Shown: positions 1,944 through 20,000 of the stretch, piece after piece
Layout: each line of letters starts with the position of its first letter
How positions within the stretch are numbered: the first letter of the stretch is position 1
Source of the DNA: an uncultured virus (IMG/VR IMGVR_UViG_2917045514_000007)
Taxonomy: Duplodnaviria > Heunggongvirae > Uroviricota > Caudoviricetes
IMG/VR virus record: IMGVR_UViG_2917045514_000007
Span: 44,755 to 64,754 of that record
Strand: one strand, 5' to 3'
DNA: 20,000 bases
Position numbers and translations under genes: made by a program
The notes under the pieces: generated by a model
The model's input: the letters and a program-made list of their open reading frames with translations, nothing else
Told to the model about the DNA's origin: nothing
Database searches by the model: none

Positions 1944-2315
1944 ATGCTGATCCTCACTCGCCGAGTCGGCGAAACCCTGCACATTGGCGACGACATCACC
2001 GTGACCGTCGTCGAGAACAGAGGCGGCCAGATCCGCCTCGGAATCGTTGCTCCGGAAGCGATGGCCATTCATCGCGCCGAGATCTACGCCCGGGTTGGCG
2101 CCGTCCGGTCCGCCTCACCCAAAGACCTGGTTGAAGAGTGGAATCGCACGCACCCGGCCCAGGTGGCCGTTGAGTACCGTCCGCTCCGCGACTCCATCCC
2201 CATCCGCACCAGAACGCTCACTCAAGCCAAAGTTTCCGCCTCCGGCATGGCGGTGATCTGGCTAGAAGGTCAGGCCACGCCGGTGCTGCTGCGCAACTGC
2301 ACTGCTGTTTCCTGA
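1944..2315 (+). CDS. csrA: CsrA/RsmA-family RNA-binding regulator with extra C-terminal domain
   Basis: N-terminus [23 protein letters not shown]...QIRLGIVAP...IHRAEIY is colinear with RsmA/CsrA, including Arg44; GGAGG RBS. Confidence 0.92.
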
Positions 2316-2335
2316 GCCCGTTTCATCCCCCCCTT

Positions 2336-2359
2336 GCCCGGCTCCGGCCGGGCTTTTTT
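2336..2359 (+). terminator. Rho-independent terminator
   Basis: GCCCGGC-TCCG-GCCGGGC followed by T6. Confidence 0.85.
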
Positions 2360-2457
2360 CACCGCCCACATTCGCATGAACGTTCCCCGACTCCCCGCCG
2401 AGCAAGCCCGGCGGCGCGAGCGTTCAGCCGAATGCAGGTGAATACGGAGCACACGCC

Positions 2458-2961
2458 ATGATCGACCCACGAGCGAACAGCCTGGAGAAACTGGTGCCGC
2501 CGGCACCGCTGCCCCACGTCAGCCGCGGCGCGCTCAAGCGCATCAAGCATCCTCAGCCAATCCCCTCCGGCTGCCCGCACTGCGGCGGCCTGGTCCGGCT
2601 GGTCAGCAACCGGGTGATCTACGGTCGCGAGTACGGCGACTGGCCATATGCATACGCCTGTACTGGCACGGGCTGCGGCGCTTACGTGGGCCTGCATCCC
2701 GACACCGACATCCCGCTGGGAACGCTGGCCGACAAGCCGCTGCGCGACGCTCGCAACCGCTGCAAGCGCCCATTCGAACGCATCTGGCGCGACAAGCTGA
2801 TGACGCGCAGTCAGGCCTACGCCTGGCTCGCCGCTGAACTCCAAATCACGCCGCCCGAATGCCACTTCGGACTCTTCGACGTTGACCGGTGTGAGCGGGC
2901 CAAACGCATCTGCGACCAGTACCTGGAAGCGATCTACACCAGTTCAGCGAGGTGGGGATGA
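2458..2961 (+). CDS. DUF3268-like zinc-finger protein
   Basis: CPHC...IYG...YAC..CGAYVGLHP.T.IPLGTLAD..LR...RSQAYAWLA..L......CHFGLFD pattern. Confidence 0.8.
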   Translation: MIDPRANSLEKLVPPAPLPHVSRGALKRIKHPQPIPSGCPHCGGLVRLVSNRVIYGREYGDWPYAYACTGTGCGAYVGLHPDTDIPLGTLADKPLRDARNRCKRPFERIWRDKLMTRSQAYAWLAAELQITPPECHFGLFDVDRCERAKRICDQYLEAIYTSSARWG

Positions 2962-3107
2962 TGTGGACATACCGCGAGCGCCACAACCGCGCAGCGTTCA
3001 ACTGCGCCCAGCAGGCCTGGGACCGCGAAGTCGATCCGCTCTGGGACCAGCCGGACCCGGAGCCCGAGGACGAAGAGCAGGAGGACGAAGATGGCCTTCA
3101 GCGATGA
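2961..3107 (+). CDS. Small acidic hypothetical protein (48 aa; not in ORF track)
   Basis: GAGGTG RBS, overlaps upstream stop; MWTYRERHNRAAFNCAQQAWDREVDPLWDQPDPEPEDEEQEDEDGLQR*. Confidence 0.6.
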   Translation: MWTYRERHNRAAFNCAQQAWDREVDPLWDQPDPEPEDEEQEDEDGLQR

Positions 3108-3312
3108 ACGCGCGGTGCTGATGATCGAGGAAGGCATTACGGCGATGCGCCGATCACCGTTCCCACGCCCGGACCAGAAGTTCGTCCACGGCCAAATTGA
3201 ACTGGCCTATGCGGTCGGCTTCATCGACACCCGTATTTACGACGACATGCGCCACCGGCTCGACGCCGCGTCGGACGCCCGCTGGGCAGAACTCAGGAGC
3301 ACTCGGGTATGA
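3091..3312 (+). CDS. Hypothetical phage protein (73 aa)
   Basis: GGAGG RBS upstream; translationally coupled to the next ORF (ATGA). Confidence 0.7.
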   Translation: MAFSDERAVLMIEEGITAMRRSPFPRPDQKFVHGQIELAYAVGFIDTRIYDDMRHRLDAASDARWAELRSTRV

Positions 3313-3680
3313 ATCCAATCACCCGCTTTCAAGTCCGGGCCGGCCGAGACGCAGCTAGCCGCTGTGAGTTCGTTCGGGAAACGAAGGCCTACTACGTTCG
3401 AGCCGACGGCACGCGCATCGCGAAGCGCGCTGACTGGTACAGGTTCTACGCCACCGAACAGGAAGCGCAGTCTGCAATCGAGCGCGACAACCGCAAGCGG
3501 GCGGAACGCGCAGCACGGCGGCGCGTTGAAAGCTACGGACCCGAATTACTCATCGCCCTGGAGCAGGCGTACTGCGCGCTGGTCGGCTATCTGCCGCAGC
3601 ATCGCAACGCGATCACAACTGCGGCGATCGAGGCGGCCCGAAGCGCAATCGACAAAGCCAAGGGAGGGGCCTCCGCATGA
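3309..3680 (+). CDS. Hypothetical phage protein (123 aa)
   Basis: AGGAG RBS; ATGA overlaps on both ends. Confidence 0.7.
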   Translation: MNPITRFQVRAGRDAASRCEFVRETKAYYVRADGTRIAKRADWYRFYATEQEAQSAIERDNRKRAERAARRRVESYGPELLIALEQAYCALVGYLPQHRNAITTAAIEAARSAIDKAKGGASA

Positions 3681-3796
3681 AGCCAAATGCGACTGGCGCC
3701 CGCCGGGCGCTCACCGAAGTTGCGTCGGCCATCGGCGTGCTGGCCCTGGTGGCTCCGTTTTACGGCTGGCTGATCTACAGGATGCTCCCGACATGA
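3677..3796 (+). CDS. Small single-TM membrane peptide (39 aa; not in ORF track)
   Basis: GGAGG RBS, ATGA overlap; MKPNATGARRALTEVASAIGVLALVAPFYGWLIYRMLPT*. Confidence 0.6.
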   Translation: MKPNATGARRALTEVASAIGVLALVAPFYGWLIYRMLPT

Positions 3797-3945
3797 ACGC
3801 GAAACGCAAAGCCATCTGGGTGGGCGGCCTGATTGGCGGCCTCCTCTTCCTGCTCATTCTCGCCCTAGGCCCGATCTGGGGCGGACTGATTACCGCGGAA
3901 CAACCAGCCACGGCGCCGGCAGCCGTCAAGCGAGCAACACCATGA
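3793..3945 (+). CDS. Small single-TM membrane protein (50 aa)
   Basis: ATGA overlap; MNAKRKAIWVGGLIGGLLFLLILALGPIWGGLITAEQ... has a hydrophobic helix after a basic N-terminus. Confidence 0.65.
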   Translation: MNAKRKAIWVGGLIGGLLFLLILALGPIWGGLITAEQPATAPAAVKRATP

Positions 3946-4697
3946 CAAACATGAATAGCAACATGGCTATCTGGGACCAGGTGAAAGAGACGGACACCAG
4001 GTACACAAGGCAGGCGAAGCTCAACGGTCAGGACATGACGTCCATCAACGGCTTGTATATCGTCCGTCGTGCGACTGAGCTATTCGGCCCCGTCGGCAAG
4101 GGCTGGGGCTGGAAAGTCTTGGTAGAGCGCTTCGATGAAGGCGCACCGCACCTCGATAAGAACGGTGCGGTCATCTGCCACGACAAGACCCACACCCTGT
4201 ACATCGAACTCTGGTATCGCCACGACGGGACGATCAATCACGCCCGCCAATACGGGCACACCCCCTACGTCTACAAGACCGAGTGGGGCTTCAAGACCGA
4301 CCACGACTACGGCAAGAAGTCACTCACCGACGCCATCAAGAAGTGTCTGTCACTCCTCGGGTTCAGCGCCGACATTCACATGGGCATGTTCGACGACACG
4401 ACCTATGTCGAAGGCCTGAAGCTGAAAGAGCGCCTGGCCGATGCCGGCGATCCCGAGACAGCCCTGGACGAAGCCAAGGACGAATTCAAGACCTGGCTTC
4501 GCGCACAACTCGACGCGATCGCCGCGGCACCGAACTCCCGCGCCCTGGAGTTAATGCGTAAGCAAGTCGCCGAGAAGGCCCGCGCCAAAGCGCCAGTCGT
4601 CAACTTCAACCCCTCAGAGATTGAGCTGCGCGTGAATGAAGCCGCCGATGAGCGCCTGCGCCAGCTTTCCCCCGCTCCTACCAGCCCCGAGGAATGA
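3942..4697 (+). CDS. Sak/Rad52-like single-strand annealing protein
   Basis: 'ATELFGPVGKGWGW' and 'KKSLTDAIKKCLSLLGFSADIH' resemble Rad52/Sak motifs; lies in the recombination module with exonuclease, SSB and RdgC. Confidence 0.65.
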   Translation: MTNMNSNMAIWDQVKETDTRYTRQAKLNGQDMTSINGLYIVRRATELFGPVGKGWGWKVLVERFDEGAPHLDKNGAVICHDKTHTLYIELWYRHDGTINHARQYGHTPYVYKTEWGFKTDHDYGKKSLTDAIKKCLSLLGFSADIHMGMFDDTTYVEGLKLKERLADAGDPETALDEAKDEFKTWLRAQLDAIAAAPNSRALELMRKQVAEKARAKAPVVNFNPSEIELRVNEAADERLRQLSPAPTSPEE

Positions 4698-4701
4698 CAC
4701 C

Positions 4702-5718
4702 ATGACCATCCTGAAAAATGTTGACCTGGAAAACGGTACCGTCGAGGTCGCCGAGTACAACGCAACCAACGCCGCCCTGGCAAAACTTCGCGAGAAGTAC
4801 GCGACGCTGCCGGACGCCAATACCGCCGATGGCTACGAGTTCATCAAGGCCGGTATCAAGGAATTGACCACACTGCGCACCAGCCTGGAAGCCGCTCGCA
4901 AGCGTGAAAAGGCGCCTTACATCGAGGCAGGCCAGATCATCGACGCCGAGGCGAAGCGGATCACCGCCGCACTGGTGACGTTGGAAGATCCGATGAAGGC
5001 CGCCAAGAAGGAGGTCGACGATCGCGTCGAACGCGAGCGCCAGGAACGGATCGCACGCCTGATGTCGAAGGTCGACGCCATCAAAGGGATGCCGGCCCAG
5101 GTACGCGGCAAGACCAGCGACGAGATTGCCGCGATGATCGACCGCTGTGGCGAAATCGACACCGCACACGACTTCTACGACTTGACGAAGGAAGCCCAAG
5201 CCGCACAGCAGGCGGCCATGGACGAACTGACCCAAATGCTGACCGACCGCCTGGCCTTCGAGCAAGCGGAGCGCCAGCGGCAGGAGTTGGAAGCCCAGCA
5301 AGCCGAAATGCGCCGCCGCATGGAGGAGCAACAGGCGGAAATGCGCCGGCAGCAAGAGGAAATGCAACGCCAACGCGAAGAACTGGCGCGCCAGCAGCAG
5401 GAGCTTGCCGCCGCGCGCCAGCAGCTCGCCGAGCAGGACACGCCCGTCGCTGTCGAGCCGGAGGCGCCGAAGGCCGAGGTTGCACCAGCGCCCGCCCAGA
5501 TCAAGCCCGCCGGCAAGGCAGCAGAGCCCGGCGCTATCCAGTGGCGCGCCCGCGTCGTCGATAAAAGCGCGTTCATCGCCGCCATCGCCGAAGGCCTGGC
5601 TACCGAAGACTTGCTCGTTGTCGACCAGCCGGCCCTGGACAGCCTGGCCAACAGCAAGGGCCAAACGCTGAATCTGCCGGGCGTGATCGTCGAAAAGGCC
5701 CCCGCGAAAGCGGCCTGA
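4702..5718 (+). CDS. Long coiled-coil phage protein (recombination-module associated)
   Basis: GAGG RBS before ATG 4702 (MTILKNVDLE...); E/Q/R-rich heptads, Pro/Ala linker, small C-terminal domain. Confidence 0.7.
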   Translation: MTILKNVDLENGTVEVAEYNATNAALAKLREKYATLPDANTADGYEFIKAGIKELTTLRTSLEAARKREKAPYIEAGQIIDAEAKRITAALVTLEDPMKAAKKEVDDRVERERQERIARLMSKVDAIKGMPAQVRGKTSDEIAAMIDRCGEIDTAHDFYDLTKEAQAAQQAAMDELTQMLTDRLAFEQAERQRQELEAQQAEMRRRMEEQQAEMRRQQEEMQRQREELARQQQELAAARQQLAEQDTPVAVEPEAPKAEVAPAPAQIKPAGKAAEPGAIQWRARVVDKSAFIAAIAEGLATEDLLVVDQPALDSLANSKGQTLNLPGVIVEKAPAKAA

Positions 5719-5765
5719 CCATCCACCTCGCACCGGCCACGCCGGCACAGTTCAAGGAAACGAGA

Positions 5766-6320
5766 ATGACCAGTATCGACTGGAGCATCGCGCCTCATTG
5801 GGCGCAGGCAGTGGTCACTACCGAGCACGGCAACGATATGTACTGGGTTGAGGGATGGGGCTGCCGGATCAGCAAACGCCAGCGCGTGGGCAACCTGCGG
5901 CCAGACCTCAACACCTGCGACATGACCAAACTGGACCACGCATGGCGACTGGTGGAACGTCGTCCTGTGGCTGATGAGGCAAAGGAGCCTGTCATACAGT
6001 GGAACGGCCAAGAAGGCCTGCCGCCGGTCGGCGTGGAATGCGAATACAGGCACATGATCTGGCCGGAGTATCGGCGCTGTGAAATTCGGTACATCAGCGA
6101 CGAGTCGTTAGTTGCGTACGACAACGGCCAAGAACAGTACTACCGCACGCGCGACATGCTGTTCCGCCCGCTCCCCACCCCCGAGCAGATCGCCGCCCAG
6201 GCTGTCGATGCCATGCTCAGCGACTACCAGTACAAGGTTGGCTCCTGTACGTTCATGCTCACGCGCGAACAGGCTGAACGGTTGTACGCCATCGGCTACC
6301 GCAAGCACCCCTCCTCCTAA
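5766..6320 (+). CDS. Hypothetical phage protein (184 aa)
   Basis: AAGGA RBS; two-module look (IDWSIAPHWA... and WNGQEGLPPVGVECEY...). Confidence 0.75.
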   Translation: MTSIDWSIAPHWAQAVVTTEHGNDMYWVEGWGCRISKRQRVGNLRPDLNTCDMTKLDHAWRLVERRPVADEAKEPVIQWNGQEGLPPVGVECEYRHMIWPEYRRCEIRYISDESLVAYDNGQEQYYRTRDMLFRPLPTPEQIAAQAVDAMLSDYQYKVGSCTFMLTREQAERLYAIGYRKHPSS

Positions 6321-6428
6321 TCCCCCCAACCCCTCCGAACCGCCTGCGCCGGCGCCCGCCGCCGGTGCGGCATCCGGGTGCGCGTTCATCGAGCGCGCAG
6401 CCTGATGCCCAACCACTGAGGACAGACC

Positions 6429-7034
6429 ATGCTCACCAACATTTTCGACTTCGAAACGACGGGTATTCCCGAGTGGAAGTTGCCCAGTGAAGACCCGTGC
6501 CAGCCCCACATCGTAGAAGTTGCCGCTCTGCTCTGCGATGCCGCCGGCAACACCATCGATCGCTTTGAGGCGATCGTGCGACCCAACGGCTGGGAAATCA
6601 GCCCCGAAATGACCGCGATCCACGGCATCAGCCACGAACAGGCGATGGATGTTGGCATCAGCGAGGCCGAGGCTCTGGAGGGATTTCTTGCGATCAACGG
6701 CCGCGCAGCCCGCCGCGCGGCGCACAACATCAGCTTCGACGACCGTATCACTCGCATCGCGCTGATGCGCTACCAGGACGAGGATGCGGCCAACGCCTTC
6801 AAGGAATCGGGTGAGAAGTTCTGCACCTGCTATCGCTCCCGCGCACAGGTCGCGCTTCCCCGCAACAAGCTGCCGACCTTGGCCGAGGCATACAAGCACT
6901 TCACCGGGGAGGACCTCGTGGAGGCTCACCGCGCGATGCCGGACGCCCAAGCCTGCGCCCGCATCTACTTCGCTTTGCAGGGAGTCGATGTGGCGCCGGC
7001 CAGTTCGGTGCCGCCGGCTGAGGCGGAGGCCTGA
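6429..7034 (+). CDS. DEDDh 3'-5' exonuclease (DnaQ/epsilon-like)
   Basis: ExoI DFETTG, ExoII AHNISFD, ExoIII AHRAMPDA. Confidence 0.9.
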   Translation: MLTNIFDFETTGIPEWKLPSEDPCQPHIVEVAALLCDAAGNTIDRFEAIVRPNGWEISPEMTAIHGISHEQAMDVGISEAEALEGFLAINGRAARRAAHNISFDDRITRIALMRYQDEDAANAFKESGEKFCTCYRSRAQVALPRNKLPTLAEAYKHFTGEDLVEAHRAMPDAQACARIYFALQGVDVAPASSVPPAEAEA

Positions 7035-7037
7035 GCC

Positions 7038-7535
7038 ATGGCACGCGGAGTGAACAAGGTAATCCTGGTCGGCCATCTGGGCCAGGATCCAGACGCAAGA
7101 TCTACCCCCAGCGGGAAGGCAGTTACGTCCCTCAGCCTGGCCACTAGCGAAAGCTGGAAAGACAAGCAGACCGGCCAGCAGCAGGAGCGCACCGAGTGGC
7201 ACCGGGTCGTGCTCTTTGGCCGGCTGGCCGAAATCGCAGCGCAATACCTGCGAAAGGGCTCCCAGGTCTACATCGAAGGCAGCCTACGCACCCGCAAGTG
7301 GCAGGGCCAGGACGGCCAGGACCACTACAGCACCGAGGTAGTGGTGGACATCAACGGCAACATGCAACTGCTCGGCGGCAAGCCTGAGCAGGCAGGCCAG
7401 TCGCGTGGCCCTGGCCGCGAGCCGCCACCGCGGCCGACCACTCACCACCAGCCGCAACCGGCAACCGACTACGACAGCTACGACGACGACATTCCGTTCG
7501 ATGACCCCTATCGCCTGCTCTGGCGTCTCGTGTAA
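7038..7535 (+). CDS. ssb: Single-stranded DNA-binding protein
   Basis: [18 protein letters not shown]...[43 protein letters not shown] near the C-terminus. Confidence 0.97.
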
Positions 7536-7561
7536 GCGCCAGGCCACCCAGGAGACACCCC

Positions 7562-8782
7562 ATGTGGTTCCGCAACCTGCAAATCTACCGCCTCACCCAA
7601 GACCTGCAAATCGACGCCGCGGCGCTGGAGCAGGCCCTGGCCAGCAAGCCGGCACGCCCCTGCGAAAGCCAGGAACTGACCACCTACGGCTTCGCCGCTC
7701 CGTTCGGCAAGGGCCCGAACGCACCGCTGGTGCACGCCAGCCGCGGCTTCCTGCTCATCTCCACCCGAAAGCAGGAGCGCCTGCTGCCCGGCAGCGTAGT
7801 GCGCGACGAACTGGCCGAGAAGGTCGAGCAAATCGAAACCGACCAGATGCGCAAGGTGTTCAAGAAGGAGCGCGACCAGCTCAAGGACGAGATCGTCCAG
7901 ACGCTGCTGCCACGGGCTTTCATTCGCAAGTCCAGCACGTTCGCCGCGCTGGACCTTGAGCAAGGCCTGGTGCTGATCGACACCAACAGCGCAAAGAAGG
8001 CCGAGGACCTACTGTCCACCCTGCGCGAAGCCCTGGGCTCGCTGCCGGTACGCCCGCTCAGCGTGAAGGTCGCGCCCAGTGCAACCCTCACCGACTGGAT
8101 GAAGGACCAGGCCGCCGGCGGCGACTTCCACGTGCTGGACAGCGCGGTACTCGCCGACACCCACGAGGACGGCGGCAAGGTCGTGGCCACCCGCCAGGAC
8201 ATGACCAGCGAGGAAATGCAGTTACACCTGTCCTCCGGGAAGCTGGTCACCCAGGTGGCCCTGGCCTGGTCGGACAAGCTCAGCTTCGTGCTCGACACCA
8301 AGCTGGCGATCAAGCGCCTGCGCTTCGACGACCTGCTGCAGGAGCAGGCTGAGAAGGACGGCGGCGACGATGCCGCCGGCCAGCTCGACGCCAGCTTCGT
8401 CCTGATGATGCTCACCTTCCGCGAGTTCATACCGCAACTGCTGGAGGCCTTGGGCGGCGAAGAGTTCCCGCAGGGAATCGACGGTGCGTACGATGAGCCC
8501 GAGCCAGCGCCTGGCGCCGGCATCGACGTAACCAAGGCGCTAGGGATGCGCGACGGTATCACCGCGACCCTCCATATCCCCCAGGTCAACGGGCCCGGTG
8601 ACGACCCGCTGCTGAAGGAGGCCATCCGCTTCGTCCGCGAGACGCGCCGCGCTTCGATCTCCGCCATCCAGCGCAAACTCAAGATCGGCTACAACCGCGC
8701 GGCACGCCTGGTAGAGGAAATGGAATTGCTGGATATCGTCGGGCCGATGCAGGGAGACGGATCTCGCGAGGTTCTGTCGTGA
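7562..8782 (+). CDS. rdgC: Recombination-associated protein RdgC fused to C-terminal FtsK-gamma domain
   Basis: [11 protein letters not shown]...ERLLPGSVV...[14 protein letters not shown]...GSLPVRPL is RdgC. The last ~60 aa ([41 protein letters not shown]...GSREVL) are an FtsK gamma winged helix. Confidence 0.92.
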
Positions 8783-8988
8783 AGTCGCCCCCATCGACGA
8801 TGCAGAACGAAACGCTCGGGCACATCCGAGCGTTCTGGGCGGAGAAAGGCTACGCACCCACCGTCGCAGAACTGGCAGCCAAGGCCGGCGTCCGCCAGTT
8901 CGCCATCCAGCAGCGCCTGACCGCCCTCGAGAACAAGGGCTACATCCAGCGCGACCCGAAAGTGGCGCGCAGTATCCGCCCGCTCTAA
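8779..8988 (+). CDS. LexA N-terminal DNA-binding-domain-only protein (69 aa)
   Basis: '[10 protein letters not shown]...[21 protein letters not shown]' matches the LexA wHTH (GxPPTxxEIA...L.AL.RKG.I...G.SRGIR); no peptidase domain. Confidence 0.8.
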
Positions 8989-9000
8989 CGCCACCCGCCG

Positions 9001-9028
9001 AGCGCCCCACCCGGGGCGCTTTCTCTTT
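9001..9028 (+). terminator. Probable Rho-independent terminator
   Basis: AGCGCCCC-ACCC-GGGGCGCT followed by TTCTCTTT. Confidence 0.7.
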
Positions 9029-9132
9029 CAGCACGCACCGGACGCCGCCCTGTGGGCGATTCAACCATGCCTCGTGGGCCGCCCTGTCAGGCAGGGCGGC
9101 GTCCGGTGTGTGCCGTTCCTCAAGGAAACAGC

Positions 9133-11763
9133 ATGACCGCCTATGAAGACTTCTTGCGAGCGAAGGTCCGCCTCGCCGAGCCGAAAGGCTTCGAAGTGGA
9201 GCCCTCGGCCTTCAACCCCCTGCTCAAGCCGCACCAGCGCGCCATCGCCACCTGGCTGGTGCGCCAAGGCCGCGCGGCCTGTTTCGCGGCCTTCGGCCTG
9301 GGCAAGTCGGTAATGCAGCTTGAGGTGGTGCGCGTCACCCGCGACCTAGCCGGCGGCTACGCTCTCATCACCATTCCGCTGGGTGTGCGCCAGGAGTTCT
9401 ACCGCGACGCCGCGATGCTCGGCATCACCGTCCGGTTCATCCGCAGTTTCGACGAGGTAGACGACCCCGCCACCATCTACCTGACCAATTACGAGACCGT
9501 CCGCGACGGCAAGCTCGACCCTCGCCGGTTCAGCGTGGCAAGCCTGGACGAAGCCAGTTGCCTTCGCGGCTTCGGCGGCAGCAAGACGTTCCGCGAGTTC
9601 ATGGCTCTGTTCGCTGGTGACGATCGCGCCGCCGGCGTCCGCGGCGATGGCGTCCGGTACCGGTACGTGGCCACTGCCACGCCAAGCCCGAACGAATACA
9701 TCGAGCTACTGGCTTACTCGGCCTTCCTCGGCGTGATGGATGTCGGCCAGGCCAAGACCAGGTTCTTCAAACGCAACTCTGAGAAGGCCGACCAACTCAC
9801 CATCCATGCCCACAAAGAGGGCGAGTTCTGGATGTGGGTGGCGTCCTGGGCGATCTTCGTTCAGCGCCCCAGCGACCTCGGGTTCAGCGACGAAGGCTAC
9901 GCGCTACCGGAACTGGACATCCGCTGGCACGAAGTACCGTCCGACCACTCGCACGCTGGCCATGAGCGTAACGGCCAGGGCCGCCTGCTTCGCAACACCG
10001 CCATTGGCGTGCAGGACGCCGCCGCAGAGAAGCGCGAGAGCCTTCCTGCCCGGATCGCCAAACTGATGGAGATCCGGGCCGAGGCTCCAGATGCTCACCG
10101 GATCATCTGGCATGACCTCGAGGCGGAACGCCACGCGATCGAGGCCGCTATCCCCACCGCCATCAGCGTCTACGGCGCCCAGGATCTGGAGGAGCGCGAG
10201 CGCGCGATTGTCCAGTTCAGCGACGGCGAGTTCCAGGAACTGGCTGCCAAACCAGTGATCGCAGGCAGCGGCTGCAACTTCCAGCGCCACTGCTCGTGGG
10301 CCATCTACCTGGGCATCGGCTTCAAGTTCAACGACTTCATCCAGTCCATTCACCGCCTGCACCGATTCCTGCAGACAGGCCGTGTGCGCATCGACCTGAT
10401 CTATACCGAGGCCGAGCGCGACATCCGCCGCCAACTCGAACGGAAGTGGCAGCAGCACAACACCATGGTTCAGCGCATGACCGAGATCATCAAGCAGTAC
10501 GGCCTGTCCGTGGCCGCCATGGCACAGACCCTCACCCGCTCCATGGGCGTGGAGCGCGTCGAGATCAAGGGCAAGGACTACACCATCGTCAACAACGACA
10601 CCGTGCTCGAAACCTGCCGCATGGAAAGCAACAGCGTCGGCTTGACCATCACCAGCATCCCCTTCAGCACCCAGTACGAGTACTCGCCGAACTACGCCGA
10701 CTTCGGCCACACCGACGACAACGCGCACTTCTTCGAGCAGATGGACTATCTGATCCCGGAACTGCTGCGCGTGACCATCCCCGGGCGTCTGGCCTGCATC
10801 CACGTGAAGGATCGCATCATTCCCGGCGGAATGACCGGCCTTGGCTTCCAGACCGTCTACCCCTTCCACATGGAAGTGACTCGAGCCTTCGTCAAGCATG
10901 GCTGGGCCTATATGGGCATGAAGACCATCGTCACCGACGTGGTTCACGAGAACGCCCAGACCTACCGCCTCTCGTGGACGGAACAGTGCAAGGACGGCAC
11001 CAAGATGGGTGTCGGCATGCCCGAGTACCTGCTGATCTTCCGCAAGCCCCCCACCGACAACTCCAACGCCTACGGCGACATTCCGGTGGTCAAGGCCAAG
11101 CCCCTGTGCATCGACGAAGACGGCCAGATCGTCCCCTTCGCCATGGACAAGAAGCTCACCGTCACCCGCGGCAACGGCTACAGCCGGGCACGCTGGCAGT
11201 TGGACGCCCACGGCTTCACCCGCAGCAACGGCAACCGTCCGCTGACTGAAGCGGACTTCGAAGGCATTCCGCACGACGTGATGTTCAAGCTGTACCGCGA
11301 CTACAGCCTGTCCACCGTCTACGACTTCGAGCACCACGTCCGCATCGGCGAATCGCTGGAGGTCACCGGGAAGCTGCCCACCGGCTTCATGCTGCTGCCA
11401 CCGCAGTCCTGGCACCCGGACGTATGGACCGACGTCGCCCGCATGCGGACGCTCAACGCCCAGCAGTACAGCAAGGGCCAGGAAATGCACCTGTGCCCGC
11501 TGCAGTTCGACATCGTCGACCGGGCCATCGTGCAGTACTCCATGGAAGGAGACCTGGTCTTCGATCCCTTCGGCGGGATCATGACCGTCCCGTACTGCGC
11601 GCTGAAGCTCAAGCGCAGAGCCCGCGCCCACGAACTGAACTCCCGCTACTTCCTGGACGGTGCCGGCTATTGCAAGTCTGCCGAGGAAGAGATGGCCATG
11701 CCCGACCTGTTCGCCCTGCTCGAGGCCGAGGCCGACATTATCCATAAGGAACCCGCCGCATGA
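9133..11763 (+). CDS. SF2/SNF2-like helicase fused to an amino (N4C/N6A, beta-class) DNA methyltransferase
   Basis: AAGGA RBS before ATG 9133. Helicase motifs FGLGKS, LDEAS, TATPSPN, QSIHRLHRFLQ; MTase motif IV-like TSIPF precedes motif I FDPFGG. Confidence 0.85.
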   Translation: MTAYEDFLRAKVRLAEPKGFEVEPSAFNPLLKPHQRAIATWLVRQGRAACFAAFGLGKSVMQLEVVRVTRDLAGGYALITIPLGVRQEFYRDAAMLGITVRFIRSFDEVDDPATIYLTNYETVRDGKLDPRRFSVASLDEASCLRGFGGSKTFREFMALFAGDDRAAGVRGDGVRYRYVATATPSPNEYIELLAYSAFLGVMDVGQAKTRFFKRNSEKADQLTIHAHKEGEFWMWVASWAIFVQRPSDLGFSDEGYALPELDIRWHEVPSDHSHAGHERNGQGRLLRNTAIGVQDAAAEKRESLPARIAKLMEIRAEAPDAHRIIWHDLEAERHAIEAAIPTAISVYGAQDLEERERAIVQFSDGEFQELAAKPVIAGSGCNFQRHCSWAIYLGIGFKFNDFIQSIHRLHRFLQTGRVRIDLIYTEAERDIRRQLERKWQQHNTMVQRMTEIIKQYGLSVAAMAQTLTRSMGVERVEIKGKDYTIVNNDTVLETCRMESNSVGLTITSIPFSTQYEYSPNYADFGHTDDNAHFFEQMDYLIPELLRVTIPGRLACIHVKDRIIPGGMTGLGFQTVYPFHMEVTRAFVKHGWAYMGMKTIVTDVVHENAQTYRLSWTEQCKDGTKMGVGMPEYLLIFRKPPTDNSNAYGDIPVVKAKPLCIDEDGQIVPFAMDKKLTVTRGNGYSRARWQLDAHGFTRSNGNRPLTEADFEGIPHDVMFKLYRDYSLSTVYDFEHHVRIGESLEVTGKLPTGFMLLPPQSWHPDVWTDVARMRTLNAQQYSKGQEMHLCPLQFDIVDRAIVQYSMEGDLVFDPFGGIMTVPYCALKLKRRARAHELNSRYFLDGAGYCKSAEEEMAMPDLFALLEAEADIIHKEPAA

Positions 11764-13568
11764 TCAAGCGCACTCTGTACCACTTCCACTTCTGCTGCGG
11801 CCTGGGCGGCGGCGCCGCCGGTTTCAACCGGGCGCGCCCGCGGGTCGGCAACGTCGAGGCTGAATGGGTCTGCCTCGGCGGGATCGACGTGGACCCGGCC
11901 GGCCTGCGCGACTTCGAGCGCCTGGCCGGTGTCCCGGGTACCCTGCTGGACCTGTTCACCCGCGACCAATACATCCGCTTCCATGGAAAGGAGCCGCCCG
12001 CCGGTTGGCGGGAGGCGACTCCGGAGGATATTCGTCGCGCCGCCGGCGGGCGCCGGCCGGATGCCGTGTTCATCAGCTCGCCCTGCAAAGGCGCCAGCGG
12101 CCTGCTGTCGGAGAAGATGAGCCTGACTCCAAAGTACCAGGCGCTGAACGAGTTGACGCTGCGCTGCATCTGGCTGATGGGCGAGGCATGGGCTGATGAC
12201 CCGGTACCGCTGATCGTCTTCGAGAACGTCCCACGCCTTGCCAGCCGCGGCCGGCACCTGCTGGACCAGATCAATAGCCTGCTCGGCGGCTTCGGCTACG
12301 CAGTGGCGGAAACCACTCACGACTGCGGCGAACTCGGCGGCCTGGCGCAGTCCCGGAAGCGCTTCCTGCTTGTCGCGCGGCACGTCGAAAAAGTGCCCCC
12401 CTTCCTGTACGAGCCAGAGAAGAAGACCCTGCGCGCCGTCGGCGACATCCTCGGCCGCATGCCGCTGCCGGGCGACATCGATGCCGCGGGGCCAATGCAC
12501 CGCATCCCATCGCTGCACTGGAAGACCTGGGTGCGCCTGGCCTTGGTAGAGGCCGGCAGCGACTGGCGGAGCCTGAACAAGCTGGCGATCGAGGACGGCC
12601 ACCTGCGCGACCTGGTAATCGTGCCGGAGTACCGCTCCGGCTACATGGGGGTGCATGGGTGGGACGACACTGCCAGCACTATCGCCGGCCGCTCCGGCCC
12701 TACCAACGGCGCATTTTCGGTAGCCGATCCTCGCTACCGCCAAGCCGCAAACTGGAACCACGGCCAGCAGTTCGGGGTGATCCGCTGGGCCGAATCAGCG
12801 CCGACTATCCCAGGGCAAACGATGCCAGGCCAAGGCACATTCAGCGTCGCCGACCCGCGCCCAGGCGGCGTCCGGCACAACAACGTGTTTCGCGTCGTCA
12901 GCATGGGGAGCCACGCCGGAACCGTCACCGGCGGGCACTCACCCAGTTCCGGAGGCCAGGCTGTTGCCGATCCCAGGTACCACAACTGGCACCCAGGGGC
13001 GAGCAGCCGCAAATTGCACGTCGGCGAGTGGGGAAGCGCTACCGGCACGGTCACCGGCTCCCAGCAAGTGGCCAGCGGCGCGCTGTCGATCGCTGATCCG
13101 CGCGTGCTCGATCGCACCAAGGGCGACGCCTACCTGACCGGCGGGCACTACGGTGTCGTCGGGTTCGACCAGTCCGCCGGCGCAGTATCCGCCAGCGCGC
13201 GGCACGACAATGGCCGGTGGAGCTTCGCCGACCCGCGCATGCCGGCGGCGAACGACCGGCTCACCTGCATCATCCAGTCGCTGGACGGCACCTGGCACCG
13301 GCCCTTCACCACCCTGGAGCTGGCCGCGCTGCAGAGCCTGGTGGACCCGGAAGAACAGTTGATCCTCGACGGCCTGAGCGACAGCGACTGGCGCGAGCGC
13401 ATCGGCAACGCCGTACCGCCGGCCGCGGCCGAGGCCATCGCCGGCGTGATGGGCACCACCCTGCTGCTGGCCGAGCAGGGCGAGACCTTCATGCTCAGCA
13501 ATACGCCGATCTGGGTACGCCCGGTTGCGATGGCGCTGAGCGTCGCGCAACAGGAGGCGCAACCGTGA
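11760..13568 (+). CDS. C5-cytosine DNA methyltransferase with expanded repetitive variable region
   Basis: Motif I FCCGLGGG, IV SSPCKGAS, VI FENV, VIII QSRKR, X IGNAVPP. Confidence 0.92.
   Translation: MIKRTLYHFHFCCGLGGGAAGFNRARPRVGNVEAEWVCLGGIDVDPAGLRDFERLAGVPGTLLDLFTRDQYIRFHGKEPPAGWREATPEDIRRAAGGRRPDAVFISSPCKGASGLLSEKMSLTPKYQALNELTLRCIWLMGEAWADDPVPLIVFENVPRLASRGRHLLDQINSLLGGFGYAVAETTHDCGELGGLAQSRKRFLLVARHVEKVPPFLYEPEKKTLRAVGDILGRMPLPGDIDAAGPMHRIPSLHWKTWVRLALVEAGSDWRSLNKLAIEDGHLRDLVIVPEYRSGYMGVHGWDDTASTIAGRSGPTNGAFSVADPRYRQAANWNHGQQFGVIRWAESAPTIPGQTMPGQGTFSVADPRPGGVRHNNVFRVVSMGSHAGTVTGGHSPSSGGQAVADPRYHNWHPGASSRKLHVGEWGSATGTVTGSQQVASGALSIADPRVLDRTKGDAYLTGGHYGVVGFDQSAGAVSASARHDNGRWSFADPRMPAANDRLTCIIQSLDGTWHRPFTTLELAALQSLVDPEEQLILDGLSDSDWRERIGNAVPPAAAEAIAGVMGTTLLLAEQGETFMLSNTPIWVRPVAMALSVAQQEAQP
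12648..13238 (+). repeat. Five diverged ~39-45 aa in-frame repeats ending in ADPR inside the C5 MTase
   Basis: ADPR ends at 12734, 12860, 12977, 13103, 13238 (spacing 126/117/126/135 nt). Confidence 0.9.
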
Positions 13569-15726: not shown

Positions 15727-16145
15727 AGCAGAAACCAGGCATCGCCCTTCCCCGCTGGCTCCTGCGGACCACAACGATGCAGATGCACAGCGTCGACGTG
15801 GTATTGGTCATGGCGCTGGTGCTCCAGCACCACGGCACGGCGGACGCTGTTCGCCGCGCCGCCGGTCAGCTTCGCGACAGAGTGTGTGCCGAGCACCGGC
15901 CCAAGATGACCGCGCTCATGCGCATGCAAGACGACGCGGCGGCGCTGCAAGTGGCGCTCAACATCGTCCAACGCGCCACCGACGCCCTGGGCATCCTGCC
16001 GGAAACGGCGTTTCCGGCCGGGCCGGTACTGACTAACCGTTACCTCGAAACCCAACTTTCACCCGGTCCGTATCAATGGACCCGGGAGGTATCTCTATGC
16101 GCAACACCCAGCAGCACCAAGACGTCCCCCGCTTCATCGACTTGA
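15723..16145 (+). CDS. Hypothetical phage protein
   Basis: ATGA-coupled start MKQKPGIALPRWLL...; the 3' end overlaps the AlpA-like gene by 49 nt, so the tail is uncertain. Confidence 0.6.
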   Translation: MKQKPGIALPRWLLRTTTMQMHSVDVVLVMALVLQHHGTADAVRRAAGQLRDRVCAEHRPKMTALMRMQDDAAALQVALNIVQRATDALGILPETAFPAGPVLTNRYLETQLSPGPYQWTREVSLCATPSSTKTSPASST

Positions 16146-16330
16146 ATATGGTCAAGTTGAGAACGGGGATGGGCACCACGTTCATCTACGACCATATGAA
16201 GAAAGGGGACTTCCCCAAAGGGCGCAAGTTCGGCCGCGCCACTCGCTGGGCAGAGGTTGAAATCGACCAGTACTGCAACGGAACCTGGACGCCGCCGGCG
16301 CCGGCAAACGAAGCGGGAGCCCCAGAGTGA
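16097..16330 (+). CDS. AlpA-family excisionase / recombination directionality factor (77 aa)
   Basis: GGAGGT RBS at 16085-16090; 'RFIDLNMVKLRTGMGTTFIYDHMKKGDFPKGRKFGRATRWAEVEIDQY' is an AlpA HTH. Confidence 0.88.
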   Translation: MRNTQQHQDVPRFIDLNMVKLRTGMGTTFIYDHMKKGDFPKGRKFGRATRWAEVEIDQYCNGTWTPPAPANEAGAPE

Positions 16331-16408
16331 TCACTCCGGGGCAGCTTCCTCTAACCGAACCAAGTAGCCACGGCAGTGCTGCACGTAGCGCGCTCGAGAC
16401 AGTCTCCA

Positions 16409-16632
16409 ACCATGGCCAGTTAGTAGTCCATCGAACCCAAGGCGCTTAATCACTTCGCTAACGGCGTTTTGGCTCATCATCTTCGTTGGGTCTATTCGAC
16501 CCACGAACGCTAACTAGTGCTCCCCCTCCGCAGAAACCACCTGGCTTACTTAATCATTAGGCGCGACAGAGACACAATCTACGGCGGCGCATCCTCCCCG
16601 TCCCTGCGCACCTTTTCAGGCAATTGTTTCAC
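16409..16632 (-). pseudogene. Decayed fragment of a second, homologous tyrosine integrase
   Basis: Minus-strand translation VKQLPEKVRRDGEDAPP*IVSLSRLMIK*ARWFLR/(4-nt deletion)/AFVGRIDPTKMMSQNAVSEVIKRLGFDGLLTGHG aligns to the intact integrase at 18960-19187. Confidence 0.9.
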
Positions 16633-16677
16633 CCTTCCGAGTCGCCATCAACTCTGTCAGCGGGTCGAAATTCTACC

Positions 16678-17220
16678 TTAAGGGTCCCGCCCTTGGAACG
16701 TGTCGTAGGTCAAATCAACCATACTTTTATATCGATCTGTAACAAAATCTGAAAGACGCATATAAAGATCAATAGCTTTAGAGTTTACAACAGCAATACG
16801 CCGTTCACGATCTGCCTCAGGCATTTTGCTACTAATTTCTGAATCAAGAGTTGCCGAGTCACGCAGATCAGCTATCTTTTCTACGGCAAAGTTCATAATT
16901 CTAGGCTCTGCTGTCCAATGCGTTAGCTTCCGGCACTTTCGCTCAAGCAAGGAAACTTTATGCTCAACAAAGTTACATTTCAAATCAACAGAACACGCAA
17001 ATAACCGTGCAGCCAAATCTGTATTATCGTCTTCGCATCTCCCCCAAAAATCGGAAACATCACTCACGATCTCTTGAAGCATCTTCTCGATCGCTGCAAC
17101 TATCGCATTCGCCTCAGATTGTCTAGCAAGCGATCGCGAATTATGATAAACAAAAATCCAACCAACGATTCCAATAATTACTGAAACGACCGCGGCCCAG
17201 TTAAAATCACCGCCCACCAT
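16678..17220 (-). CDS. Single-TM helical hypothetical protein (180 aa), third gene of AT-rich cargo operon
   Basis: N-terminal TM WAAVVSVIIGIVGWIFVY, then a predicted helical soluble domain; start overlaps the upstream gene by 14 nt. Confidence 0.8.
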   Translation of the reverse strand: MVGGDFNWAAVVSVIIGIVGWIFVYHNSRSLARQSEANAIVAAIEKMLQEIVSDVSDFWGRCEDDNTDLAARLFACSVDLKCNFVEHKVSLLERKCRKLTHWTAEPRIMNFAVEKIADLRDSATLDSEISSKMPEADRERRIAVVNSKAIDLYMRLSDFVTDRYKSMVDLTYDTFQGRDP

Positions 17221-17563
17221 TATTTTCAGGCCTCGCCTCGCGAATGTACTTATCTATATTATTCAACACACTTTTATAACGGCTTTTATAACCGACCCGC
17301 TTCCGCACCTCTTCTGGAGTGAAGCCCTCATATTTAATTAGCCCCCCAAATACCTCATCCAGAAAAGATGAACCACTCCCCAGCACCCCAGTTAAGTCAA
17401 CTTCAACGTAATCATACTCTTCTAAGGCTTTGAGCAAGAACTCCTTTCTGAATCGAACACCATTAAACTCCGGATTATCAACCTCGGAGCGACCATAAGG
17501 CATATCAGTAAAATCTTTTGCCACATCAATTATCTTAATCAAACCTTTATTCATTTGAATCAC
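17207..17563 (-). CDS. STAS-like (DUF4325-type) protein
   Basis: 'PYGR...NGVRFRKEFLLKAL...VEVDLTGVLGSGSSFLDEVFGGL' fits the DUF4325 signature. GTGA overlap with the upstream stop; an alternative ATG is at 17554. Confidence 0.85.
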   Translation of the reverse strand: MIQMNKGLIKIIDVAKDFTDMPYGRSEVDNPEFNGVRFRKEFLLKALEEYDYVEVDLTGVLGSGSSFLDEVFGGLIKYEGFTPEEVRKRVGYKSRYKSVLNNIDKYIREARPENNGGR

Positions 17564-18660
17564 CCTGGGACTTTAAGCTTGATATTCCATTGAATCAAGG
17601 TTCCATGAAATTCAAACGGAAGCGGCCTAGCCTCCTCTCTCTGCCCCTTTGTTTGGTATTGATACCAACCACTACCACTATAGATCATTAGCGTTCCCAT
17701 TGGATTCGCTTCGACAAAATCTTTTGCTTCGGACAGACCTTTTCCGCGCCCGCTAGTATTGAAGCGAGACTTCCCATAGTCGACAGCAGCCTTAATACTT
17801 GCAGCATCGCGAAATGCTCTTGCGGGAAATGACGGACTAATTTTCAGAAACTTTCTCACGACACGATAAGCATCTTTCATCATACCAACCACATTTGACT
17901 TAATGGATAAGGTCTTTGGAATACCCACACCCATGTCATAAACACCTATAAAAAGCTGATCCTCAATCAGACGAACAACAATCCACCAATTCTGCAAATG
18001 AGCAGGGAGATCCAGTTCGAATTCTTTAGCATACCCATGTTGCCAAACATTACCAACAGATTCCGTAATCGCAGCGAAAGCTAATCCGCCTTGTTCATCC
18101 TCTTTAGAACTTTCAAATATATCTTTCACATATGAAATAACAGACCGAAGCTCCGTTTGTTCTGCCCCACCCTCTTTATCCTCGGATGAAGCAGTACAGA
18201 TAGGAACCCCGGGAACCTTCGCATCCTTAAAGTTAGGACGGCGCTCTCGCATCAAGTCCCAAAAGCCTAAAATCTGAAATTTTCTCGCTATATTAAGATT
18301 GCAACAAGCAGTTGATTTAATAATTTTTGAATTTCCATGAAGCTTTTGCAACTGCTCTATATTTGCATACAAGACAAGTAGTGCTGCGACCTTTACAGCA
18401 CGCACAGGTTTGAAGTCAAGAAGAACCAACCCACTAGAGCAAGCTTGTCTGATACTATTTATAAATTTCCAAAATTCATCATAGCCCGAACCAAAAAAAT
18501 TAAGCTCTTCCGGCGCAACAACTACAATTCGAGAGCCGATCCGTGATTTGAGTTTCAGCTTTCTTTGAGGATCATATTTACGTGGATTTCTAGCGATCAA
18601 CAGTGCACGCCTAGTAGCATTCCTTTGCCGAATAAAATCAGAATCCCTTAACTTTTTCAT
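17560..18660 (-). CDS. STAS-like + GHKL (HATPase_c) ATPase/kinase
   Basis: Bergerat-fold motifs: N-box ITESVGNVWQHG, G1 YDMGVGIP, G2 GRGKGL, G3 HGTLIQW. N-terminal 'VLLDFKPVRAVKVAALLVL' is STAS-like. No HisKA or sensor TM visible. Confidence 0.85.
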   Translation of the reverse strand: MKKLRDSDFIRQRNATRRALLIARNPRKYDPQRKLKLKSRIGSRIVVVAPEELNFFGSGYDEFWKFINSIRQACSSGLVLLDFKPVRAVKVAALLVLYANIEQLQKLHGNSKIIKSTACCNLNIARKFQILGFWDLMRERRPNFKDAKVPGVPICTASSEDKEGGAEQTELRSVISYVKDIFESSKEDEQGGLAFAAITESVGNVWQHGYAKEFELDLPAHLQNWWIVVRLIEDQLFIGVYDMGVGIPKTLSIKSNVVGMMKDAYRVVRKFLKISPSFPARAFRDAASIKAAVDYGKSRFNTSGRGKGLSEAKDFVEANPMGTLMIYSGSGWYQYQTKGQREEARPLPFEFHGTLIQWNIKLKVPG

Positions 18661-18767
18661 CGCAAACAGTCGCTCGTAGAACCAAAATGCGAAAGATCAT
18701 ACATGAGCGAAGTAGAGGATTCACAGGGCAAGTCTCTTTTTTTACCGTGATGCTCACTGGTCACATG

Positions 18768-20000
18768 TCAGCCCTCAGCCAGCTCCCGCTGATCCAGAAA
18801 ATCAGCCCAGGCTTGCATCATTTCCCTTCGCTTTTCCACATGTGCAGCATGGTTATAAGCCGCCCTGGCCTTACTGGGATCCGCATGTGACAGCTGCGCC
18901 TCAATCAAGGTCGTGTCGTACCCCATCTCATGCAATGCCGTAGAAAACGTTCCACGCAGACCATGTCCGGTAAGCAATCCGTCAAACCCAAGTCGCTTGA
19001 TTGCCTGATTGATAGTGTTCTCACTCATCATCTTGGTGGGATCGTTCCGACCGGCGAACGCGTACGGGTAGCGACCCGTAATCCTCAAAAGCGCTCTTAC
19101 CTCCTCTATCGCCTGCCGAGACAGGGGTACGATGTACGGCGGCACTTGCGCTCCATCCTTACGTACCAGACCTCGTAACTGCTTAACTGTTCCGGGTGGA
19201 ACAGTCCATATCCCCTTTTCTAGATCGAAGTCTGCCGGCGCAGCCTTTCGAAGCTCAATCGTACGTACCGCCGTCAGAAGCATCAGACGAACGGCGATCC
19301 TTGTGATTTCGGACCCTTGGTAAGACCGCAGCCTCACAAGAAGGGCTGGAAGCTCTTCGCCATCATGCGCAAGAATCGGATTGTGCTCAGTCGGTGGTTG
19401 TTCTTTCGCCAGAATGTCCAGATCCGAAGCAGGGTTGTCCTCTCGTAACCCGGCCGCGATCCCAACGCGGAAGATCTGGCGTAACCAACTCCGCGCCTTC
19501 TCCGCGACGTGCAGCGCTCCCCGGCGCTCGATGGCTCCGACAACCGCAGCCAGGTCACGACGGTGAATTTCGCGAAACTTCATATTCGCCAGGGCCGGGT
19601 ACAGGTCATTGTCCAATACTCTGCGCGCCTGGTTTGCGCTGCCTTTCCGGCTATCGTCCGCCCAGCGCCCCTGTTTCAACGCCAGCCACTGTTCAGCCAC
19701 GTGTCGAAACGTCTCCTCGACGCTGACCGTCTTCCGGTCCGCTCGATGCTGCCCCCGCGGATCGATGCCTTGGGCCACCAACGAACGCGCCTCGTCACGG
19801 CGCTGCCGGGCATCACGCAGGCTCAACTCGGGATACGTCCCAAGCGACACTCGCTTCTGCTGACCATTCAGCGAAAAGCGGAAGTGCCAGCTTTTGGTGC
19901 CCTTGTGTGAAACAAAGAGAGAGAGGCCGTCAATGTCGGCGAGGGTATAGTCTTTAGCTTCTGCTTTTGCCTGGCGGACAGCAGTATCCGTGAGCGGCAT
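18768..20000 (-). CDS. int: P4-family tyrosine recombinase (phage integrase)
   Basis: N-terminal arm-binding domain (DGLSLFV...SW.FRF...SLGTYPELSL.DAR); catalytic R (TAVRTIE), HGLR, QLSH, AAYN. Confidence 0.97.
   Translation of the reverse strand: MPLTDTAVRQAKAEAKDYTLADIDGLSLFVSHKGTKSWHFRFSLNGQQKRVSLGTYPELSLRDARQRRDEARSLVAQGIDPRGQHRADRKTVSVEETFRHVAEQWLALKQGRWADDSRKGSANQARRVLDNDLYPALANMKFREIHRRDLAAVVGAIERRGALHVAEKARSWLRQIFRVGIAAGLREDNPASDLDILAKEQPPTEHNPILAHDGEELPALLVRLRSYQGSEITRIAVRLMLLTAVRTIELRKAAPADFDLEKGIWTVPPGTVKQLRGLVRKDGAQVPPYIVPLSRQAIEEVRALLRITGRYPYAFAGRNDPTKMMSENTINQAIKRLGFDGLLTGHGLRGTFSTALHEMGYDTTLIEAQLSHADPSKARAAYNHAAHVEKRREMMQAWADFLDQRELAEG

Follow-up and report, generated by a model that had tools for sequence, protein, structure and literature searches.

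A prophage cassette encoding a STAS-GHKL kinase, a stand-alone STAS protein and a membrane-anchored helical protein, a candidate phosphorylation switch for phage defence

What do three overlapping, AT-rich genes for a predicted kinase, a STAS protein and a membrane protein do between the xis and int genes of a prophage? The question is raised by a window of 20,000 nucleotides (the whole stretch of viral DNA that was analysed), for which an earlier note, made from the sequence alone, had proposed a kinase/STAS phospho-switch that gates a membrane effector in anti-phage defence. The three genes, here designated K, S and X, are listed with their neighbours in Table 1.

Table 1. Features at the int-xis end of the window, in window positions
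Feature	Position	Strand	Description
K	17560..18660	-	366 aa ORF; N-terminal helix, STAS domain and GHKL kinase domain
S	17207..17563	-	118 aa DUF4325 STAS protein; Pfam PF14213, E 1.5e-12
X	16678..17220	-	180 aa; N-terminal TM helix and four-helix bundle, predicted cytoplasmic
int-K spacer	18661..18767	-	107 nt, from int stop to K start
Tyrosine integrase int	18768..20000	-	410 aa; Pfam and PHROG
Degenerate duplicate of the int 3' region	16331..16639	-	about 75% identical; abuts xis; insertion scar
AlpA-family excisionase/regulator xis	16097..16330	+	Pfam Phage_AlpA, E 4.7e-9; PHROG 66; bounds the cargo slot

The list of open reading frames gives overlaps of 4 nt between K and S and of 14 nt between S and X, and its coordinates confirm the arrangement first described, three overlapping minus-strand genes between xis and int. 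The AT-richness claimed for the cassette is also borne out, as its windowed GC content is 0.39-0.47 against mostly 0.60-0.70 in the upstream prophage, and the GC3 values of K, S and X are 0.35, 0.41 and 0.37 against 0.62-0.87 in five phage genes. The int gene, too, is encoded on the minus strand and lies upstream of K, so that it and the operon are read in the same direction, 107 nt apart. At the other end, X is followed by the degenerate copy of the int 3' region and then by xis, which is convergent with the cassette. A promoter and terminator scan remained at chance level (4 promoter-like sites in the scanned region versus 4.1 in shuffled sequences) and placed no promoter-like site within the int-K spacer. 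RNA-seq contigs from copies about 95% identical cover the cassette in 4/4 runs from 4 studies, and two of them span roughly the cassette only (16308-18432 and 16327-18548); they are a weak hint only, because they show neither strand nor level and may derive from DNA. Elsewhere in the window, the early operon (1944-13568) presumably encodes a CsrA-like protein, a 3'-5' exonuclease, SSB and RdgC, together with what we take from the translations to be a helicase-methylase and a cytosine methylase.

The history of the insertion can be approached through eight sister viral contigs with 96-100% identical xis genes. In five of them int is located directly beside xis, two hold the cassette, and one is cut at the contig end; across these xis-matched sisters the exact slot is either empty or occupied by K-S-X, with no other cargo found. 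Comparison with one cassette-free sister (L116) revealed that the remnant next to xis ends like the int of that sister, and that the C-terminus of the working int differs. On the simplest reading, the cassette and a new int end would have been acquired by recombination within int. Contig L121 (6001-7378) encodes a 372-aa integrase with the remnant-type rearranged end and no cassette, and may be either a loss product or a precursor allele. Given this allele and the absence of the cassette from five of the eight sisters, the cassette is dispensable for persistence of the element.

K, S and X travel together as prophage cargo. Among 49 kinase loci obtained from two collection scans, many of them near-copies, S is the next gene in 48 and X is present in 47, and the homologues are thus kept as a triplet. 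Of the two exceptions, L030 is truncated behind K, and in L048 the X profile missed a third gene that is TM-helical. At 49/49 loci the flanks have a lower AT content than the cassette. In an independent sample of 401 Pseudomonadaceae genomes, DUF4325 was found in 30, and these loci comprise 18 K-S-X operons (16 detected by profile, in genomes of which two were already in the main set, and 2 by eye), 5 operons in which the third gene encodes a PIN protein (K-S-PIN, confirmed by Pfam) and 7 other arrangements. The tree and the residue counts used below are based on 47 kinases linked to X, 6 linked to PIN and 5 orphans; of the 49 loci, 18 were left out as near-duplicates, truncated or split. In the tree, a branch with support 97/99 separates the X-linked kinases from the rest, a result to be read with a long-branch caveat. 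The identities of K, S and X co-vary (K-X Spearman 0.54, shuffles up to 0.18), which is not decisive, because shared descent would also yield it.

K combines STAS and GHKL domains, its ATP site is intact, and it is predicted to be active as a kinase. Its model (pLDDT 86.5) shows a basic N-terminal stretch of about residues 1-45, built as one long and one short helix, a STAS domain (38-141) and a GHKL domain of the SpoIIAB/RsbW type (149-365). The best fold matches are STAS domains for the former (4qtp, Z 9.0, rmsd 2.5, 94 aligned) and SpoIIAB/RsbW for the latter (1l0o, VIA Z 11.1, rmsd 3.4, 139 aligned), which also aligns with 6m36 (Z 11.0, rmsd 2.6, 102 aligned). Sequence searches of solved structures gave nothing significant, the best being RsbW with E 0.12. 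The claim that gene 1 carries the GHKL ATP-binding motifs and no HisKA domain has held, as E200/N204, D242/G244, G306/G308 and G353/T354 are invariant in 47/47 family kinases, and Pfam returned no HisKA and a weak HATPase_c match (E 0.078). Pfam found no HTH in K or S. In addition, K matches PHROG 3364 (E 1.5e-45) and aligns with the PIN-linked VapK-type kinases (hhalign 99.4%, E 5e-22, 260 columns). Two features set the X-linked clade apart, namely the aromatic residues Y210 (46/47) and W225, W226 and W358 (47/47), conserved in this clade only, and an N-terminal stretch with a net charge of at least +7, found in 41/47 X-linked and 0/6 PIN-linked kinases. The X-linked kinases of L083, L084, L085, L041 and L238 have no basic N-terminal extension in the ORF. 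Three further loci (L002 5001-6088, L021 432-1472 and L049 3436-4209) retain intact S and X next to a split or shortened kinase gene, which sequencing error or loss of the trigger could explain.

The second gene had been described as a stand-alone STAS-like protein with a candidate phosphorylatable serine, and this description agrees with its DUF4325 match and with the residue S66 (codon 17366-17368), a putative phospho-acceptor that is invariant in 47/47 and that we take to be equivalent to SpoIIAA S58. P22, R25 and R39 are also invariant and are specific to the family. The 118-aa protein stops right after the STAS fold and aligns with VapS-type proteins (hhalign 96.1%, E 3e-9). In the gapless alignment S66 falls one residue past VapS S48, whose position is occupied by S65, a serine here and variable across the family. 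On the other hand, S66 directly precedes a conserved Phe, as does S54 of CapS (counted from Appendix Table S2, PMC13373217).

The third gene is, as initially claimed, a membrane-anchored helical protein, judging by its hydrophobic segment and modelled bundle. The TM segment (about residues 8-26) runs into a long helix followed by three more, forming a four-helix bundle (pLDDT 89). Lysine and arginine residues are more numerous after than before the TM segment in 37/37 X members, and the bundle is predicted to be cytoplasmic, where it would be reachable by S. X matches PHROG 30059 (E 6e-11) and has relatives in 758 clusters at 50% identity (E<=1e-3). A hydropathy scan of the best 150 of these 758 relatives gave one TM segment in 104, two in 34 and none in 12, and no fusion of X to S or K was found among them. 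The only fold matches were generic helical bundles (Z up to about 13), which neither name nor exclude a family, and profile and fold searches detected no catalytic or toxin motif. None of the 37 X members matched PIN, with a profile library that detected 6/6 PIN-type third genes. X is consequently treated as a candidate, either effector or sensor. KilB emerged as a lead from the Atlas search only (score 0.89, 138/256 features).

Two kinase-STAS systems have been characterised experimentally, VapKSC and CapKS, and in both of them sensing falls to K and switching to S (PMC13373217). In VapKSC, VapS inhibits VapC and a phosphomimetic substitution abolishes this inhibition, and the operon protects against one phage by about 2 logs (Chambers et al., EMBO J 2026, PMC13373217). 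The cassette resembles VapKSC in its order of kinase, STAS and third gene, in its homologous K and S, in a kinase that lacks an HTH and keeps the N-box Asn (N204, 47/47), in a stand-alone STAS protein directly downstream of the kinase (48/49 loci), in the lack of a sigma factor or phosphatase, and in its location near defence genes. It differs in that the third gene encodes a TM four-helix bundle instead of a VapC/PIN nuclease, in the separate clade of its kinases, in the basic N-terminal extension, in the shorter S tail and, as far as the gapless alignment shows, in the position of the invariant serine of S. The VapK residues F54 (the STAS-loop Phe) and K180/K181 (in the hairpin that precedes the D-box), taken from Appendix Table S2 of PMC13373217, were mapped by alignment and manual count, with a five-residue offset from the printed sequence. 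The F54 position is A88 here, and it is aromatic in 2/47 X-linked versus 3/6 PIN-linked kinases, while the hairpin is shorter and acidic here and is net basic in 8/47 versus 6/6. Identity with VapKSC was rejected on the grounds that X replaces VapC, the clade is separate and the ssDNA residues are mostly absent. The match to an already catalogued system that had been left open is thereby answered in part: K and S have homologues in VapKSC, but the effector and the ssDNA site differ.

Similarly, CapK/CapS combines a STAS-GHKL kinase with a STAS substrate in which S54 is placed like S66, as judged from the same appendix table, but no HTH is present on this K and no wHTH on this S, which indicates that S is not a transcriptional repressor. 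Nor is there a downstream immune operon; instead, the pair has a fixed membrane-protein partner, followed by the int remnant and the convergent xis in the window and by varied phage genes at other loci. The likeness to CapS and to VapS-VapC is sequence-based, as their structures were absent from the structure-search results. SpoIIAB/SpoIIAA and RsbW/RsbV offer the best kinase-domain folds and a STAS partner with a conserved serine, but K has its own STAS domain, and the cassette is mobile cargo rather than core genome. As the earlier note had stated, the cassette encodes neither a cognate sigma factor nor a PP2C phosphatase; in 14 further chromosomal loci, a STAS gene with SpoIIE appears beyond int-dus in one, and an rpoS-like sigma gene beyond mutS in two.

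By analogy with VapKSC, K-S-X may constitute a phosphorylation-released membrane effector for phage defence, a reading to which we give about even chances. Gene order, the homology of K and S with PIN-linked operons and the experimental demonstration of the switch (PMC13373217) support it, as do the conserved triplet, its cargo slots and the co-varying identities. The missing toxin motif and specific fold match of X, the absence of X fusions to S or K among the best 150 relatives and the lack of a PADLOC match count against it. What the analysis establishes is the anatomy, linkage and context of the genes; the binding of X by S, the kinase activity of K, the toxicity of X and protection by the cassette are inferred. 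In its unphosphorylated form, S would bind the cytoplasmic bundle of X and keep it inactive; an infection or stress signal would activate K, which would phosphorylate S66 and release X; and freed X might damage the membrane or arrest growth, which would shield the lysogen population against certain phages. Unlike VapK and CapK, K is probably not triggered by bound ssDNA; more likely its basic N-terminal helix or its conserved aromatic residues recognise a phage protein or some nucleic acid.

The wiring could also run in reverse, with X as a membrane sensor or inhibitor that responds to a phage protein or membrane event, a K output that arrests growth through a host target, and S as antagonist or decoy. 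X is the fastest-evolving of the three proteins (its median identity is 16%, that of K 25% and that of S 38%), as would be expected of a sensor in contact with phages, and receptor ligand-binding bundles are among its fold neighbours, even though helical-bundle matches of this strength are unspecific. Moreover, the VapK ssDNA residues are missing from most X-linked kinases, whose input would therefore come from elsewhere, and the four aromatic residues described above are confined to the clade linked to X. Nevertheless, this arrangement is judged unlikely, as it conflicts with the roles of K and S in both characterised relatives (PMC13373217), and the X bundle is predicted to be cytoplasmic, unlike periplasmic receptor domains.

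The genomic context bears on whether the proposed released effector serves in defence. The cassette is clearly mobile cargo. In E. coli it occupies the gpA/dinI-portal slot of a P2-like prophage, the int-psu slot of a P4-like element and a site beside a prophage integrase, and the triplet occurs 68 and 9 times in the P2 and P4 hotspot tables of PMC9122126, where neighbouring cargo has been validated as defensive. The proposal of a prophage cargo slot is consequently well founded. Around 36 loci (100/130 flanking proteins scanned), the flanks included 8 portal, 5 integrase, 3 cI-like repressor, 3 DNA methylase, 2 tail/baseplate and 2 transposase genes. At the 14 chromosomal loci (131/133 neighbours scanned, the other 2 belonging to the cassette), 8 cassettes lie beside an integrase or prophage repressor. 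Enrichment near defence genes depends on the treatment of the matches: after manual removal of generic-domain matches, 4/14 loci and 0/14 controls adjoin Mrr, retron I-B, Hachiman or GmrSD, but any raw PADLOC match with E<=1e-10 is found in 8/14 loci and 5/14 controls, which is little difference. The link of the cassette to defence is therefore modest. In L212 (2657-4947) K-S-X directly follows a retron I-B (RT and ATPase-Toprim), and in L215 (1133-4998) it directly follows Hachiman. PADLOC itself gave no match at E<=1e-3 for the three window proteins or 27 homologues, and NCBIfam, Pfam and PADLOC assigned neither K nor X above cut-off.

The family has been listed before. In Rousset et al. 2022 (PMC9122126), system 69 of Table S1B and system 61 of Table S5B correspond to K-S-X, since the entries show the K and S motifs, DUF4325 and '1 TM in protein 3', and the accessions match the E. 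coli loci. The entries list the family unnamed and give no mechanism, and the lists of tested systems in the available part of that article contain no DUF4325 or motif match. A 112-aa DUF4325 protein, WP_000763711, has 95 entries for the P2 hotspot (Table S5A, PMC9122126) and, with a three-gene 'hypothetical' arrangement in two rows, is probably another member. Beyond such table entries, no description of the triplet was found in the full-text literature searched, which mostly excluded subscription papers and bioRxiv supplements. Separately, identity with the validated Rst_3HP system ('hp + hp + hp') was rejected, as its proteins (334, ~360 and ~230 aa), compared by reading and motif search only, lack the K or S motifs in the material available for them.

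A member of the family has nonetheless been screened. In the DefensePredictor article (PMC13092281), VPUS is a 1,871-bp unit annotated as 'hypothetical, STAS-like, hypothetical' (log-odds 5.75, with 7.5 for another DUF4325 gene recurrent in the P2 hotspot), which was cloned into MG1655 together with the promoter predicted to be its own and scored as non-defensive against 24 phages. The annealing part of its reverse primer matches five viral contigs, one of which (L238) has three ORFs that together cover exactly 1,871 bp and match the K, S and X profiles (E 3e-43, 1e-31 and 2e-19); the forward primer was not found in the L238 locus. VPUS is thus taken as a K-S-X member, its match to L238 resting on the reverse primer, the span and the annotation. 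The prophages carrying the VPUS-type triplet (L236-L240) also have, at 1338-2228, a hydrophobic gene with GC 0.28 upstream of xis-int, possibly further cargo. The VPUS result means that the family has been tested once and failed, and it also shows that E. coli tolerates carriage of the complete operon. It lowers the defence reading but does not remove it, since VPUS is distant from the window cassette (K 29% identical over 181 aa, X 31% over 141 aa), its kinase has no basic N-terminus, and 52/94 predicted units (55%) failed in the same screen (PMC13092281). That kinase keeps the VapK-like Phe and is closest to those of L083-L085. The phospho-switch originally proposed consequently stands as regards triplet conservation, location in defence slots and the VapKSC precedent, and has this negative against it.

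The negative screen would be accounted for by a stress-response or addiction module without anti-phage function, which stabilises the element or adjusts lysogen membrane physiology. The authors of VapKSC call the line between stress response and immunity fuzzy (PMC13373217), and toxin-antitoxin logic would also stabilise cargo. Such a module appears rather unlikely, however, because the cassette recurs in hotspots whose neighbouring cargo is validated as defensive (PMC9122126) and adjoins defence systems, and because the element persists in the five cassette-free sisters and in the L121 allele.

Another interpretation that would fit the result for VPUS, through a narrow target range, is superinfection exclusion, in which X would keep the DNA of related phages from crossing the inner membrane and spare the cell, and K and S would tune X or switch it off during induction. 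Small membrane proteins of prophage immunity and integrase regions often mediate exclusion, and one homologue (L206) has cI and a gene with a Pfam superinfection-immunity match as neighbours. The exclusion proteins that are known mostly work on their own, though, whereas at the loci examined, a kinase-anchored set, X always came together with K and S; furthermore, X is predicted to be mostly cytoplasmic and gave no match to known exclusion families in profile searches. This function is considered improbable.

Should the released-effector reading be correct, the kinase-STAS switch described in 2026 would be a plug-in module with both input and output swappable, a large unannotated membrane-protein family (the 758 clusters) would gain a function, and prophage carriage would have a testable effect on phages infecting Pseudomonas or E. 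coli lysogens. Gating of a non-sigma effector by a kinase/STAS pair has already been shown in VapKSC (PMC13373217), so the concept is known and the novelty is lower. It is possible, but doubtful, that K-S-X is a distinct and widespread anti-phage system, the third kinase-STAS output after transcription (CapKS) and RNase (VapKSC), with a new input on K (basic N-terminal helix and aromatic patch instead of ssDNA) and with X as a new family of non-enzymatic membrane effectors. In the Pseudomonadaceae sample K-S-X outnumbers VapKSC, by 18 to 5 of the 30 DUF4325 loci.

DUF4325 also occurs in other architectures. A class-level census detected it in 59/400 genomes, from which no frequency is drawn, because the 29 of 30 best-scoring loci that were examined encode mostly fused proteins of about 345 aa. 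Many such stand-alone proteins, with DUF4325 at the C-terminus, are among the best class-level matches (L087-L115), and L076 (418-1728) encodes a fused kinase-DUF4325 protein of 436 aa. Finally, five loci (L063, L067, L071, L074 and L080) hold orphan kinase-STAS pairs with no third gene, whose kinases form their own clade and are aromatic at the VapK F54 position in 5/5.
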